From Pseudomonadota bacterium (GTDB taxonomy: Bacteria; Pseudomonadota; Alphaproteobacteria; Rhodobacterales; Rhodobacteraceae), in NCBI GenBank assembly GCA_038527345.1, contig JBCBFX010000006.1, positions 640 through 64,639 on the forward strand: a stretch of DNA of 64,000 nucleotides, written 5' to 3'. The notes under the pieces were generated by a model, which ran no database searches, had not been told where the DNA came from, and saw nothing but the letters and a program-made list of their open reading frames with translations. Made by a program: the position numbers and the translations under genes. Positions 61,057 through 63,484 of this stretch are shown here, piece by piece; the first letter of the stretch is position 1; every line of letters starts with the position of its first letter.

Positions 61057-62076
61057 TTAGTCCGCAGTACCGGACCGAAGCGGTGCATCCGGGACGGCGC
61101 AAACAATGAAACCGGCATCGCTTTCCGCATAGATGTCGCCCGTGTCCCAGTCCGTGGACATGTTCAGGCCGCGTGTCACGCTGCGGGGCGGCACCAGTTT
61201 GCCGGGGGGCAGGATCAGGTTGGGGGTCAGTTGCATCCGCAATTTCTGCACCGGCACGCCGCCGCGTCGCGTGCGCAACTGGCGTTTGGGTTTTTCCAGC
61301 AGGTTGGACAGCAGGGTCGTGCTGTTGGTTTCCTTGCTGAACTGCACGCGGCCCACCATGACAAAGACCGCTGCCCGCACGAAATTCCCCGTGGGACCGA
61401 ACCCGCCCTGCCTGTCGAACCGCACGCCCCTGTAGATGCCGTCGCGCAGGCCGTCCAGCAGCGGTTGGCTGTACCAGCCCGTCGTGTCGTTCAGAGCCGC
61501 AGGTGCAAGTTCGACTATGCGGAAGGCGCTGTAGGTCAGCGATGCGCGCAACCGTTCGCCCCTGGGTTGGCCCGATGCGGGTTTCCAGGGGGACGCGGCA
61601 TTGGGGCGCCAGACGTCGATCCTGATCTTCAGCGGGCCCAGCCCGGGCTCAGTCGGCCAGGTGGCTGCATAGCCGGGCACAAAGCTGCAAGCGGCGGCCG
61701 CGGTATCGCCGGGCTTGTAGCACAGCCCGCCATTGGCCCTGTCACTGCTGGTGATGTTCTTTTTGGCCGTCGTCTGCTGCGTGGCCAGGGCCAGGCGTTC
61801 GGCAGGCGGGCCATCCTGCAGATTTGTGTTTGACAGGAACCCCGCGAAGCTGGCCGAAAAGCTGGTCGTGGTCGTCACGATCGGATTGGTGGGGGACAAC
61901 TGGTTGTCGATCAGCGGCCAGGCGGCACTGCGCACCTGGTCGTTTGCAATCGGCTGAAGCGGAAAATAGGGCAGGATATTGGTCAGCATCGGCGCGGCGT
62001 CCTGTGCCAGCGCGGGGGACGTCCCGACATGGGCCGTCAGCTTGCGCGCGACCAGTTTGTCCAGGTAATCCACCAA
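61057..62076 (-). CDS. hypothetical 339-aa protein, downstream partner of the 441-aa orphan
   Basis: It starts at TTG 62076 or, more likely, GTG 62073 (GGAGAGGA just upstream). It lies 82 nt after the stop of the upstream gene on the same strand. No signal peptide, TM segment or recognisable domain. Confidence 0.7.
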   Translation of the reverse strand: MVDYLDKLVARKLTAHVGTSPALAQDAAPMLTNILPYFPLQPIANDQVRSAAWPLIDNQLSPTNPIVTTTTSFSASFAGFLSNTNLQDGPPAERLALATQQTTAKKNITSSDRANGGLCYKPGDTAAAACSFVPGYAATWPTEPGLGPLKIRIDVWRPNAASPWKPASGQPRGERLRASLTYSAFRIVELAPAALNDTTGWYSQPLLDGLRDGIYRGVRFDRQGGFGPTGNFVRAAVFVMVGRVQFSKETNSTTLLSNLLEKPKRQLRTRRGGVPVQKLRMQLTPNLILPPGKLVPPRSVTRGLNMSTDWDTGDIYAESDAGFIVCAVPDAPLRSGTAD

Positions 62077-62158
62077 CGTCCTCTCCGGTCCCTACCTTTG
62101 GATGTGCGACCGGCCCCGCATACGGGGGCCGATCTGGCTGTGTCCTGTGCGCGCCGTC

Positions 62159-63484
62159 CTAGTCGAGAGGATTTTCCAGGAATGCGCCATGCACGACAAG
62201 GTTGTTCTTGTCGCCGGTCGGGTTGATGTCGACCTCCATCGCATAGTTCTTGTCCGACGACCCCGAAGACGACTTGGTGTACGAGGTGCTGGCCGACGCG
62301 ATCGGCAGGATGCCGAACAGGCTGACCGAAGCGTGCGATTCCGTGTGGAAGTATTTCTGGAAGGACGAGAAGTCGTCCGAGGCAAAGAACATCTTGCCTG
62401 TCGGCATGGTCGACAACAGGAACCCGCGCAGCGATTGCAGGCCACCAGCCGCAAGAACGGCCTTGTGCGATGCCTCGTTCGAGCCAAAGTACGGACCGGT
62501 GTCACCGGAGGTATTGTTGTAGGCCTGCTTGAGGATCGACGCGAGATACCAGCCGATGGTGTTGTTCGCCATCAGGTTCGCGGGCGACGCGGACAGATAC
62601 GCCACATTGGTATAGGTCAGGTCGATCCGCGCGTTGGACATCAGTTTCTGAAAGTTGCTTTCGCTGTATTGCGCGCTGGAGGCACCGGAAATTCCCAGCC
62701 AGCCGATGTCGAACGCGCCACCGGCGCCGCCCTTGACCGAAAAGCTTGACCCGGACTGGCCCACATCCGTCAATGAGACCGAGATGTTGACGGTCTGCCC
62801 GGTATTGAATTTCGCGGGAAAGTTCGGATCGACGTTGTAGCCGGGGAACCAGACCTTGTTGTTGTTCCGGTCAAAGGCCTGCACGCCACCGTTGGTTTGC
62901 GACGGGCTCTGGATGTTCGCCTTGATCGCGGTGATCTGGTTGGCGAATTCCACCTTGGCCGAGTTGATGTTCGACATGATCTGGATGTCGGCCTTGGCCG
63001 AGTTGTAGTCCGGGGCGAACTTGGCCCAGTTGAGCGACTGCATGAACTGCGGCGTGAATTGCGCGGTCACGTAATCGATCTTGGAATGGACACCAGCGGC
63101 GGCCATCTGTTCCTGGGTGATGGGGGAAAAGGTCTGTTCCCAGATGGTGACCAGATTGTTCAGAACAACCTGATTCTTGGTCGTCAGACTGGTGATTTCA
63201 TTCTGGTCCTTCTGTGACAGCCCGTACACCATGTCCATCACCATCTGCTGATAGGTGGTGGCGAACATGTCGGCTGTCGACCATGTTGCCAGGTCGCTGG
63301 ATGTGGCCGGCACATAGGTCCCGGCGATGACGTCGTGCGCCATGTTGCCAATCACACCGGTGGTCAGTACCGGACGCGCGATCAGTTCGGGAATGGTGAA
63401 TTGCGCGGGTGCGGGCATGTTGGGCGGCAACGCGGATTTGAATTGCGCAAGAATGTCTGCCTTGGCTGTGTCGAGATCGGCCAT
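62159..63484 (-). CDS. hypothetical 441-aa protein of unusual composition (Arg-poor, Cys-free, Asn/Ser/Thr/Gln-rich)
   Basis: ATG at 63484 lies 7 nt after a strong AGGAGGA. Third codon positions are mostly G/C, so usage is host-like. By my reading there are only about four Arg and no Cys. There is no signal peptide. The N-half looks helical and the C-half Gly/Ser-rich and beta-like. No family was recognised. Confidence 0.8.
   Translation of the reverse strand: MADLDTAKADILAQFKSALPPNMPAPAQFTIPELIARPVLTTGVIGNMAHDVIAGTYVPATSSDLATWSTADMFATTYQQMVMDMVYGLSQKDQNEITSLTTKNQVVLNNLVTIWEQTFSPITQEQMAAAGVHSKIDYVTAQFTPQFMQSLNWAKFAPDYNSAKADIQIMSNINSAKVEFANQITAIKANIQSPSQTNGGVQAFDRNNNKVWFPGYNVDPNFPAKFNTGQTVNISVSLTDVGQSGSSFSVKGGAGGAFDIGWLGISGASSAQYSESNFQKLMSNARIDLTYTNVAYLSASPANLMANNTIGWYLASILKQAYNNTSGDTGPYFGSNEASHKAVLAAGGLQSLRGFLLSTMPTGKMFFASDDFSSFQKYFHTESHASVSLFGILPIASASTSYTKSSSGSSDKNYAMEVDINPTGDKNNLVVHGAFLENPLD

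Follow-up and report, generated by a model that had tools for sequence, protein, structure and literature searches.

A Rhodobacteraceae gene pair from one unannotated superfamily, tentatively read as a two-component toxin-like system

The gene pair and its surroundings

Two adjacent genes, here termed A and B, lie close to the end of the window, by which we mean the whole 64,000-nucleotide stretch of Rhodobacteraceae DNA that was analysed (Table 1). Both were read as open reading frames; the public annotation (P0023) begins B at a GTG at 62073, giving 338 residues. An earlier note, made from the sequence alone, reported that the 441-residue reading frame has the best Shine-Dalgarno sequence and that a 339-residue frame with no recognisable domain follows after 82 nt. 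The AGGAGGA element with its 7-nt spacer and the 82-nt gap are confirmed by direct reading. A GGAGG-type site occupies the same position in most orthologous loci, and weaker sites are found in the Tateyamaria and Granulosicoccaceae loci.

Table 1. Positions of the genes and associated features in window numbering
Feature	Position	Strand	Description
Gene B	61057..62076	minus	TTG start, 339 aa; ORF reading
GC-rich stem-loop in the 82-nt A-B spacer	62108..62134	minus	dG -21.1 kcal/mol, z -3.7
Gene A	62159..63484	minus	ATG start, 441 aa; ORF reading
Codons for A residues 240-283	62636..62767	minus	Candidate membrane-inserting beta-hairpin
Divergent intergenic region, window part	63485..64000		Extended locus L003
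Shine-Dalgarno AGGAGGA	63492..63498	minus	7 nt before A's ATG; direct sequence reading
TGAAAT/ATTTCA half-site array	63577..63660	minus	Nested inverted repeats, 93-176 nt upstream of A's ATG

The product of A is acidic (computed pI 5.1) and, as the earlier note described, differs in composition from its neighbours. Residue counts give four Arg (0.9%) and no Cys, together with Asn 7.7%, Ser 10.9%, Thr 7.7%, Gln 5.7%, Lys 4.5% and Phe 5.4%. The GC3 of A is 0.81 versus 0.77-0.80 in the three nearest neighbouring ORFs tested (0.69-0.80 across all six neighbouring ORFs). Since GC3 resembles that of the neighbours and GC1 and GC2 are depressed, the bias lies at the protein level and does not reflect foreign codon usage, again as first proposed. 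Neither A nor B has a signal peptide, a hydrophobic N-terminus or a TM-like segment according to a Kyte-Doolittle scan, which is a heuristic and not SignalP. No secretion system was found within 10 kb of the pair.

Every one of the six loci examined has a hairpin at the position of the stem-loop between A and B (dG -19 to -26.5, z -3.3 to -4.8; single-sequence folds). The Granulosicoccaceae hairpin differs in sequence, and in two loci the hairpin is followed by U-tracts. The element is probably a leaky terminator or an mRNA-stabilising hairpin, either of which would yield more A than B.

More than 500 nt of lower-GC non-coding DNA had been noted upstream of A. The region measures 599 nt with a GC content of 0.571, as against 0.626 for the window, and it runs on to about position 64084, where a regulator gene begins on the plus strand some 84 nt past the window end. 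The half-site array within it comprises two inverted repeats (I6, I7) and two direct repeats (D1, D4). It is kept in the six Rhodobacteraceae loci that have the regulator, but not in the regulator-less Granulosicoccaceae locus, and is a candidate operator for the divergent protein, which combines a Trans_reg_C (OmpR/ToxR-type) winged helix-turn-helix (wHTH) with TPR repeats and contains no NTPase. A sigma-70 consensus promoter was not found in the upstream region. No Rfam family matches the intergenic regions, and a riboswitch or known leader upstream of A is rejected on this ground. In other genomes a 218-aa gene occupies the position upstream of A; the idea that the present region is a decayed copy of that gene is rejected, as no remnant is detected.

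The description of A and B as an orphan two-gene module does not survive comparison with other genomes. In Rhodobacteraceae the pair belongs to a conserved island of five to six genes, in which it faces the wHTH-TPR regulator, a PAP2-like protein and an S8 subtilase, all located beyond the window edge. The subtilase is present in the divergent operon of every Rhodobacteraceae locus, and absent from the Granulosicoccaceae locus and from the solitary relatives described below. Regular-expression searches recover three of its three catalytic motifs in loci L003 and L002 and two of three in L005 and L001. No signal peptide or TM segment is seen in the regulator, the PAP2-like protein or the subtilase. 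The genomic context of the island differs between genomes, and once it adjoins an integrase. A plasmid or phage origin is unsupported, as tblastn against plasmid and phage collections and a scan of IMG/VR returned no match.

The A superfamily and the kinship of B

A has 22 close homologs, and at 50% identity the superfamily around it counts at least 263 clusters. With E<=1e-3 as the cut-off a profile search retrieves 263 representatives, and 170 remain with E<=1e-10. The module of about 440 residues is widespread yet rare, and occurs mainly in metagenomic sequences; its hosts include Rhodobacteraceae, Granulosicoccaceae, Fischerella and Spirochaetales. All members seen are poor in Arg and Cys (Arg mostly below 3%, Cys about 0-0.6%, N+S+T+Q about 25-38%), so that the exported-type composition suggested for A is a genuine trait of the whole family. 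Sec/Tat-like N-termini are found in 10 of 149 full-length members (~7%), that of P0172 being of the twin-arginine kind.

A structural role at the cell surface, whether in an S-layer or fibre, as the earlier note also considered, or as some other abundant part of the envelope, would agree with the strong Shine-Dalgarno sequence, with a Cys-free, Asn/Ser/Thr-rich and acidic A, and with the excess of A over B that the hairpin implies. We find no positive evidence for such a structural role and regard it as very improbable: A and B lack S-layer, SLH, RTX and pilin signatures in Pfam as well as any anchoring domain, the distribution is patchy and island-like (only seven loci among 185,579 species genomes), and the gene is frameshifted at one locus. 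The nuclease, immunity and PLAT fusions of the relatives also speak against it.

In relatives, at least six C-terminal classes occur behind the module. P0127 carries a WHH nuclease and a SUKH immunity domain, both above the Pfam gathering cut-off, and P0150 ends in a PLAT domain (E 2e-9). Thiol_cytolys_C matches P0106 (E 7.6e-4) and P0102 (E 0.16) weakly, over the full profile length and below the Pfam cut-off. Among PDB sequences, domain 4 of perfringolysin O and of intermedilysin rank first and third of the three matches to P0106, at E of only about 0.7-0.9. An 'HNH-like' class shows the pattern WIxLWE...CxxC...GAH...PLCxxCN, and its only profile matches are DUF968 (E 0.005) and an HNH endonuclease (E 1). 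PLAT is a lipid-binding domain, and appendages of the PLAT and CDC-D4 kind typically serve pore formers for targeting. The nuclease fusions are as compatible with a module for delivery or translocation as with a pore.

These varied appendages, including the WHH-SUKH tip, could mean that the family is a non-toxic trafficking or translocation module, with A a cargo-less adhesin, a decoy or a carrier of B, and the effector being B or another protein. Its counterparts would be the part of colicins that binds receptors and translocates, or the N-terminal modules of polymorphic toxins. Weak Foldseek matches of the colicin E9, IpaB and EmrA hairpin type point the same way. More than 85% of members have no C-terminal extension, however, and the module must therefore function alone in most of them; B is itself a paralog of the module with no recognisable enzyme, the PLAT and CDC-D4-like domains are of a type that usually targets pore formers and is not cargo, and no known secretion marker was found. 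On balance we consider this explanation unlikely.

The earlier note treated A and B as two families. Comparison by hhalign places the B family within the A superfamily (probability 95.4%, E 2e-8), aligning B residues 72-256 with A residues 154-374. The complete B orthologs match the A HMM weakly, with the exception of the Granulosicoccaceae one. These profile alignments identify B as a truncated and only distantly related paralog that corresponds to A's central and C-terminal region. The expected co-conservation holds: B or a B remnant lies behind A in 9 of 10 distinct loci, and the pair is inherited together across Alpha- and Gammaproteobacteria. At one locus A and B stand alone amid housekeeping genes. 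B is absent from Phaeobacter sp. B1627, and the distant relatives of A are solitary, with no B-like partner.

B departs from the remaining family in its ordinary cytoplasmic composition; it is basic (pI 9.7), Arg-rich (7.1%) and contains three Cys. Across the same genomes, B is 31-48% identical versus 58-77% for A, evolving about twice as fast. Together with the opposite pI values, the loss of the amphipathic segment described below and the fact that one genome (L011) does without B and two have it in degraded form, these features would fit a degenerate A copy that serves in the cytoplasm as chaperone or immunity protein, binding A and blocking its oligomerisation until release. We hold this to be possible, if doubtful. 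Among the bicomponent toxins known to consist of paralogs (leukocidins, CDCL-S/L, Hbl/Nhe, XaxAB/YaxAB, BinAB), the paralog is a pore component and not an immunity factor; moreover, with its promoter-distal place behind the hairpin, B could just as well be a minor stoichiometric partner, and the solitary relatives need no such factor.

Predicted structure and searches against known folds

Two AlphaFold models of A agree with the helical N-terminal half and beta-rich C-terminal half proposed from the sequence. The better one has a pLDDT of 85.5 and a pTM of 0.81 (0.69 for the other). It contains helices of 28 and 40 residues in the N-half and a large beta domain, and is only about one-third helical overall.

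Residues 240-283 of A form a Ser/Gly-rich segment of 44 residues, in which an amphipathic strand, a GGxGG turn and a second strand follow one another. In 145 sequences, mostly 15-28% identical to A, its length is near-constant (43-45 residues, 10th-90th percentile) and its composition differs from that elsewhere (Ser 18.8% versus 10.1%, Gly 11.5% versus 7.7%, Pro 1.8% versus 4.8%). The alternating hydrophobicity is kept across the family. The segment is the lowest-pLDDT stretch of the A model, and in the hhalign alignment it falls into gaps of B, which is devoid of it. From sequence pattern and model, residues 240-283 are a candidate membrane-inserting beta-hairpin.

For the superfamily of A we could find neither an annotation nor a Pfam model or structural relative, and the view that both proteins are undescribed stands, as no family or structure library tried gave a match. 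A and B return nothing from Pfam and NCBIfam at E<=1 and nothing from PADLOC and PHROGs. PADLOC is also empty for the subtilase, the PAP2-like protein, the regulator, the 218-aa protein and four distant relatives. PDB sequence searches, whether started from the individual proteins or from profiles A1 and A2, give chance-level coiled-coil matches only. Foldseek runs with both A models against the PDB, and with the first against BFVD, yield nothing below E 0.1; the best PDB values are E 0.17-0.26 with TM <0.15, and these weak matches are the long helical hairpins already mentioned. Pfam scans of 47 diverse members turn up the WHH/SUKH pair in a single long protein, two weak stray matches and nothing else. 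The secretion markers PAAR, LXG, MIX and VgrG have no Pfam match in A, B or the 47 members. Literature searches by accession and keyword found no description of the family.

The earlier note had pointed, without relying on it, to a loose echo of the MACPF signature, which is Y/W-G-T/S-H-F/Y-x6-G-G. The stretch in question, FGSNEASHKAVLAAGG (A residues 333-348), falls short of it by one residue. The echo is not real: the His of FGSNEASHKAVLAAGG is unconserved even in the 22 close homologs, with GG alone being kept, and there is neither a Pfam nor a fold match. MACPF (PF01823) and Thiol_cytolysin (PF01289) are missing at E<=1 from A and B, and neither turns up in 47 + 10 + 10 family members scanned. 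In the MACPF/CDC fold two helical clusters flank a bent central beta-sheet; no CDC, MACPF or CDCL chain is among the 50 Foldseek matches listed.

Several other assignments were rejected. A polymorphic toxin layout does not apply to A, which ends with the module at residue 441; neither A nor B has a toxin or immunity match in Pfam. Gasdermin membership is dismissed for want of a Pfam, PADLOC or Foldseek match; the ClyA/HlyE, Hbl/Nhe and XaxAB/YaxAB type because Pfam and the PDB give no match and the model, with its large beta domain, is only about one-third helical; and the aerolysin/ETX-MTX2/leukocidin type because neither a Pfam nor a PDB fold match is obtained. Nor does Pfam give a match to RTX, SLH or S-layer domains. 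The RTX hallmark is a tandem array of GGxGxD nonapeptides, and the lone GGAGGAFD stretch of A is off this consensus.

A possible two-component toxin and its relation to known systems

We tentatively favour, as a plausible reading of the sequence data, that A and B form a two-component toxin-like pair, probably membrane-inserting, drawn from one unannotated superfamily. Of the earlier interpretation, the undescribed, co-conserved effector pair of export-type composition is retained, with the domain fusions and the paralogy favouring its 'binary toxin' version, and the orphan status, the separate families, MACPF and the S-layer find no support. We note that the cytoplasmic composition of B, the solitary distant relatives and the B-less Phaeobacter sp. 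B1627 run against a toxin pair.

In the proposed mechanism, A would be abundant owing to its strong Shine-Dalgarno sequence and its place as the hairpin-protected 5' cistron, and in Rhodobacteraceae it would be controlled by the divergent HilA-like wHTH-TPR regulator through the TGAAAT array. It would be released by lysis or exported along a non-Sec route, bind the target membrane, oligomerise and insert the 44-residue hairpin as a beta-barrel. The scarcer B may be a non-inserting partner acting as initiator, platform or cap, which we take to be likelier than a cytoplasmic chaperone or immunity function. The S8 subtilase encoded nearby may cleave the proteins and so activate them. As there is no similarity to known pore formers, the case for pore formation by A draws on the amphipathic segment and the domain fusions. 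A bolder joint reading, which we offer as speculative, is that the ~440-residue module founds a new structural class of beta-barrel toxins, pore-forming or translocating, in which the 44-residue hairpin makes up the transmembrane barrel, its fold being unrelated to MACPF/CDC, aerolysin, hemolysin, gasdermin and ClyA, and that A and B in marine Proteobacteria are a two-component version with its own regulator and activating subtilase.

Because all five island proteins (A, B, the regulator, the PAP2-like protein and the subtilase) have no signal peptide, an intracellular role is conceivable. Adjacent proteases, some of them subtilisin-like, activate bacterial and fungal gasdermins. By analogy, in an abortive-infection response the subtilase could cleave a latent cytoplasmic A once the TPR protein senses infection or stress, and A could perforate the producer's own inner membrane. 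An apparently intact subtilase and a TPR protein do adjoin a candidate membrane-inserting protein, none of the five proteins has a TM segment, and the varied contexts of the island, once beside an integrase, would suit such cell suicide. Yet A gives no PADLOC, Gasdermin Pfam or fold match, and the Sec/Tat signals, PLAT domain and nuclease-plus-immunity fusion of its relatives point outside the producer. With its wHTH and no NTPase, the TPR protein resembles an ordinary activator; the Granulosicoccaceae locus has A and B but no protease, and the distant relatives are solitary. A strong Shine-Dalgarno sequence, and the high expression it predicts, are ill-suited to a latent suicide factor. We judge this scenario improbable and continue with the two-component toxin-like pair.

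Its nearest parallel is CDCL-S/CDCL-L, antibacterial two-component pore formers of Bacteroidota (PMC11169675; PMC11952106). These are paralogs that require cleavage by a protease for activity and work together in a ratio of 25-30:1; they are PF01289-positive and have SpII lipoprotein signal peptides (PMC11169675). Both systems consist of adjacent paralogous genes of unequal length (about 365/500 aa in CDCL, 441/339 aa here) and are carried on mobile elements, here a putative mobile island. The uneven stoichiometry was measured in CDCL and is here only implied by the intercistronic hairpin. Activation of CDCL is proteolytic; in our case the parallel is circumstantial, in that a dedicated subtilase adjoins the pair in Rhodobacteraceae but not in the Granulosicoccaceae locus. 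A few distant A relatives also have a weak CDC-domain-4-like C-terminus. Unlike CDCL, A and B have no PF01289/MACPF match, no fold match to CDC, CDCL or MACPF, and no lipobox or SpII signal peptide, and no immunity lipoprotein was found. Furthermore, the candidate inserting segment resides in the longer, upstream and presumably abundant protein, and the organisms are marine Proteobacteria instead of Bacteroidota.

Some beta-barrel toxins have a glycine-rich stem, and the leukocidins among them include bicomponent paralogs. The fixed-length, Ser/Gly-rich amphipathic segment of A, ~44 residues long and predicted to be flexible in the soluble form, resembles the pre-stem or insertion loop of alpha-hemolysin/leukocidins and aerolysin/ETX-MTX2, but unlike these toxins A has a large helical N-half with its 28- and 40-residue helices. 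Polymorphic toxins combine a constant N-terminal module with variable C-terminal domains (Zhang et al. 2012, PMC3482391). Distant A relatives share this layout, one of them with a WHH nuclease followed by SUKH; A and most family members, in contrast, are tip-less, and the A module matches no trafficking domain having a Pfam model (47 members).

The regulatory arrangement recalls PlcR and HilA control, in that a DNA-binding TPR regulator is divergent to a toxin-like operon and a palindromic repeat array occupies the shared intergenic region, binding by the regulator being putative. The OmpR/ToxR-type (Trans_reg_C) DNA-binding domain is as in HilA and unlike the XRE-type HTH of PlcR; unlike PlcR, too, no signalling peptide gene was found at the locus.

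Pore-forming and toxin-delivery proteins fall into few structural classes, each new one of which has opened new biology and yielded tools such as nanopores, delivery vehicles and insecticidal or antibacterial proteins. The A family comprises hundreds of sequence clusters in several phyla, and its fusions point to action on other cells. The Roseobacter group are key marine associates of algae and particles. In this group, a regulated two-gene cassette on a putative mobile island could play an as yet undiscovered part in antagonism between bacteria and algae or among bacteria. The cassette is present in two cultured strains, A is Cys-free, and the proteins are of moderate size and putatively soluble, which makes the proposal directly testable.

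Genes A and B and their surroundings

Genes A and B, previously taken for an orphan pair, are more than that: they form a paralog pair drawn from an unannotated superfamily, with a regulator next door. Both open reading frames are present as the earlier note described them, with a gap of 82 nt (see the table below). The public annotation of B, as the identical protein P0023, places the start at GTG 62073 and gives 338 residues. The odd composition reported for A is accurate, with four Arg (0.9%), no Cys, and 7.7% Asn, 10.9% Ser, 7.7% Thr and 5.7% Gln. A matches its neighbours in GC3 (0.81) but has depressed GC1 and GC2; the bias therefore lies in the protein and not in codon usage, which bears out the earlier statement. 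Neither A nor B contains a hydrophobic N-terminus or TM-like segment according to a heuristic scan. The non-coding DNA 5′ of A extends to the window end and measures 599 nt in the source contig, with a GC content of 0.571.

Features of the A–B locus, with the adjoining divergent operon
Feature	Position	Strand	Description
Operator-like array	63577-63660		93-176 nt upstream of A; TGAAAT/ATTTCA half-sites, nested inverted repeats
Shine-Dalgarno of A	63492-63498	minus	AGGAGGA, 7 nt ahead of ATG
Gene A	62159..63484	minus	ATG start, 441 aa
A–B spacer hairpin	62108-62134		GC-rich, dG -21 kcal/mol, z -3.7
Gene B	61057..62076	minus	TTG start, 339 aa
Operon gene 1	outside window		wHTH (Trans_reg_C) + TPR regulator
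Operon gene 2	outside window		soluble PAP2-like protein; KRP, PSGH, HYPVD motifs
Operon gene 3	outside window		672-aa S8 subtilase; DDG, HGT, GTSxAxP motifs

The divergent operon begins about 84 nt past the window end (L003, the window's locus in extended form; source contig; GCA_038529155.1). Its regulator, PAP2-like and S8 genes are present in all Rhodobacteraceae loci, six of which also carry an extra gene encoding 214-218 aa; the flanks vary from genome to genome, and an integrase appears once. In the Granulosicoccaceae (Gammaproteobacteria) locus, A and B stand alone amid cytochrome, TctA/C and phosphoesterase genes, which makes the two genes the minimal unit. In nine of 10 distinct loci A is followed by B or by what remains of B. 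Aliisedimentitalea sp. MJ-SS2 has both genes; B is missing from Phaeobacter sp. B1627 and fragmentary in loci L015 and L020, the former with a frameshift in A as well. We note that L015 (910-2469) belongs to a contig assigned by binning to the archaeon Methanothrix sp.; A is split into two ORFs and the B fragment is 54% identical to proteobacterial B. Probably either a bacterial contig was binned wrongly or a transferred copy is in decay. Members of the close family are rare, with seven loci in 185,579 species genomes and two in the JGI metagenome collection; none was found in the plasmid, phage and IMG/VR collections.

Within the operon, the N-terminus of the PAP2-like protein (L003:5200-6396, minus strand, about 65.7-66.9 kb in extended window numbering) consists of 8-13 tandem tripeptide repeats, conserved in register but varying in residues by genome: (GAY)n here and in Tateyamaria, (SAF)n in Aliisedimentitalea and (NAY)n in MedPE-SWcel. 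With a haloperoxidase/phosphatase-like domain attached, and a subtilase and TPR regulator encoded alongside, this aromatic tripeptide repeat might serve as a peptide precursor or signal. Two further genes without Pfam matches adjoin the island, each in a single genome: behind the S8 protease, a 301-aa gene (L003:2218-3123), only in this genome, and behind B, a 462-aa Asn/Ser/Thr-rich gene (L002:10494-11882), only in Tateyamaria.

Superfamily and predicted fold of A

Searches of Pfam, NCBIfam, PADLOC and PHROGs return zero matches for A and for B, and PDB sequences yield nothing significant for either, whether searched singly or as profiles. A word-indexed search finds only 22 close homologs of A (52-100% identity, all about 441 aa), with Tateyamaria, Aliisedimentitalea, Phaeobacter and a MedPE alphaproteobacterium as named hosts. 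An exhaustive profile search reaches 263 representatives at E ≤ 1e-3 and 170 at E ≤ 1e-10, each representing a 50%-identity cluster. Most superfamily members have 450-540 aa and share 15-28% identity with A. Fischerella sp. PCC 9605 and one Spirochaetales MAG are among the named hosts, the remainder being mostly metagenome-only. Arg is mostly below 3% across the family, Cys about 0-0.6% and N+S+T+Q about 25-38%; the odd composition of A is a family trait. Distant members occur singly, behind long upstream regions and among unrelated genes, and the ~440-aa module common to the superfamily is therefore autonomous.

AlphaFold2 was run on A with 22 close homologs (pLDDT 80.6, pTM 0.69) and with 145 superfamily sequences (pLDDT 85.5, pTM 0.81). 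The predicted structure has an N-terminal region, two long α-helices (about residues 91-118 and 153-192) and a β-rich C-terminal half, in which one strand spans 18 residues (284-301). Foldseek comparison of both models with the PDB, and of the first with BFVD, gives nothing below E 0.1 and every TM-score is under 0.15, although remote fold similarity can escape Foldseek. MACPF, CDC, gasdermin, aerolysin, leukocidin and ClyA-type structures are absent among the 50 matches listed. The loose MACPF echo noted in A thus finds no support, as no such fold appears in that list; moreover, the motif His is unconserved even among close homologs. The modeled fold of the superfamily is apparently new.

Paralogy of B and a candidate inserting segment

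Profile comparisons identify B as a truncated paralog of A. The A-superfamily HMM gives weak but consistent matches to all complete B orthologs except that of Granulosicoccaceae. When six B orthologs are aligned profile to profile with the A superfamily, the probability reaches 95.4% (E 2e-8, 176 columns), B residues 72-256 pairing with A residues 154-374; the close A family on its own gives 70%. The two share N-x3-P-S-x2-NGG, G-Y, T-Y and GWY motifs. B evolves faster, with 31-48% identity across the same genomes versus 58-77% for A. The proteins also contrast in charge, A being acidic (pI 5.1) and B basic (pI 9.7), and B is ordinary in composition (7.1% Arg, three Cys). Both the ordinary composition and the basic charge would be in keeping with B acting in the cytoplasm as a chaperone or immunity copy of A, a role that we consider rather unlikely.

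The gaps in the B alignment coincide exactly with a Ser/Gly segment of A, residues 240-283. The length of this segment barely varies over 145 highly diverged sequences (10th to 90th percentile, 43-45 aa). The segment is enriched in Ser (18.8% vs 10.1% elsewhere) and Gly (11.5% vs 7.7%) and depleted of Pro (1.8% vs 4.8%). It is laid out as an amphipathic strand, a GGxGG-type turn and a second amphipathic strand, and is the least confident part of the A model (pLDDT 52-69). The pre-stem or insertion loops of β-barrel pore formers of the α-hemolysin/aerolysin type are Ser/Gly-rich, amphipathic, flexible and fixed in length. The resemblance is by analogy only, and makes residues 240-283 a candidate membrane-inserting hairpin. 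Pore formation by A would be argued from one sequence feature and from fusions in distant relatives; that the A family represents a structurally new class of pore former is possible but doubtful.

Export, expression and proposed function

Signal-peptide-like N-termini occur in 10 of 149 full-length superfamily members, one of them lipoprotein-like and one twin-arginine (RRQFIAGLSVTLAAAGTGVAA, in the relative P0172). About 20 of ~150 listed representatives extend past the module, in at least six unrelated classes. In P0127 the module is joined to a WHH nuclease and a SUKH (SMI1_KNR4) immunity domain, each above the Pfam gathering score, and in P0150 to a PLAT domain (E 2e-9). P0106 and P0102 end in a ~100-aa domain that matches the whole Thiol_cytolys_C profile (CDC domain 4) at sub-threshold E values of 7.6e-4 and 0.16; of three PDB sequence matches to the P0106 domain, perfringolysin O and intermedilysin domain 4 rank first and third (E about 0.7-0.9), and the CDC-domain-4 identity is suggestive. 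Another ~160-aa C-terminal domain is common to P0078, P0162 and P0172, and a Cys/His motif class found in seven representatives looks His-Me-finger-like or HNH-like, a weak assignment. Signal peptides, lipid- or membrane-binding appendages and nuclease-immunity tips would be expected of a module acting on other cells. A non-toxic delivery module is improbable in our estimation, and a structural surface protein very much more so.

Two relatives have neighbourhoods of their own. On L016, a metagenome contig of 37.6% GC, a relative of 714 aa (6001-8145) has a C-terminal domain of the Cys/His-motif kind and is present on at least 23 contigs. Next to it comes an array of six small ORFs of 54-155 aa in opposite orientation, and after these an HTH_XRE gene, a Gp49-family gene and another small ORF; such an arrangement resembles a toxin/immunity islet carried by a mobile element. 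In one distant locus (L007:7343-8215), a LytTR-domain regulator lies directly upstream of a family gene, across a 786-nt intergenic region. Toxin and bacteriocin genes are often under LytTR regulators.

Upstream of A we found no Rfam family and no sigma-70 consensus. The TGAAAT/ATTTCA array is kept in regulator-bearing loci and not in the regulator-less one; because the sequence itself is conserved and does not covary, it looks like a protein-binding operator. The spacer hairpin recurs at an unchanged position in each of the six loci examined (dG -19 to -26.5, z -3.3 to -4.8), with a different sequence in Granulosicoccaceae and a U-tract after it in two loci. The Rhodobacter puf operon is a known case of an intercistronic hairpin, and by analogy A should be far more abundant than B.

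The most economical reading, if somewhat short of probable, is that A and B constitute a two-component exported toxin. A would be the subunit that is abundant, leaves the cell and inserts into membranes, and B a minor non-inserting partner serving as initiator, platform or cap. In Rhodobacteraceae, the HilA-like regulator would switch the pair on and the subtilase possibly mature it. The closest functional analogue is CDCL-S/L of Bacteroidota, paired paralogs on mobile elements that require protease activation and assemble at 25-30:1 (PMC11169675). A and B fall outside that group by sequence, by fold and by signal peptide alike, and may therefore work like CDCL-S/L but are not CDCL. An intracellular gasdermin-like suicide effector would fit an island that wholly lacks signal peptides and includes a protease, but relatives of A are exported, the regulator has a DNA-binding domain and some loci have no protease, and we judge it quite unlikely. 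The finding is an unannotated superfamily with a coherent toxin-type context, found as a regulated paralog pair.

Elsewhere in the window, three tandem paralogs of 214-239 aa (52750..53394, 53434..54084 and 54107..54826, within 52750-54826, minus strand) each contain a phage-tail-collar domain (PF07484 Collar); upstream of them is a sugar-modification cluster (WbqC, DegT aminotransferase, hexapeptide transferase). Between glycosyltransferase-like and sugar-modification genes, 57565-59247 (minus strand) encodes a B12-binding radical SAM protein with DUF4070, which does not belong to the A–B island in other genomes.
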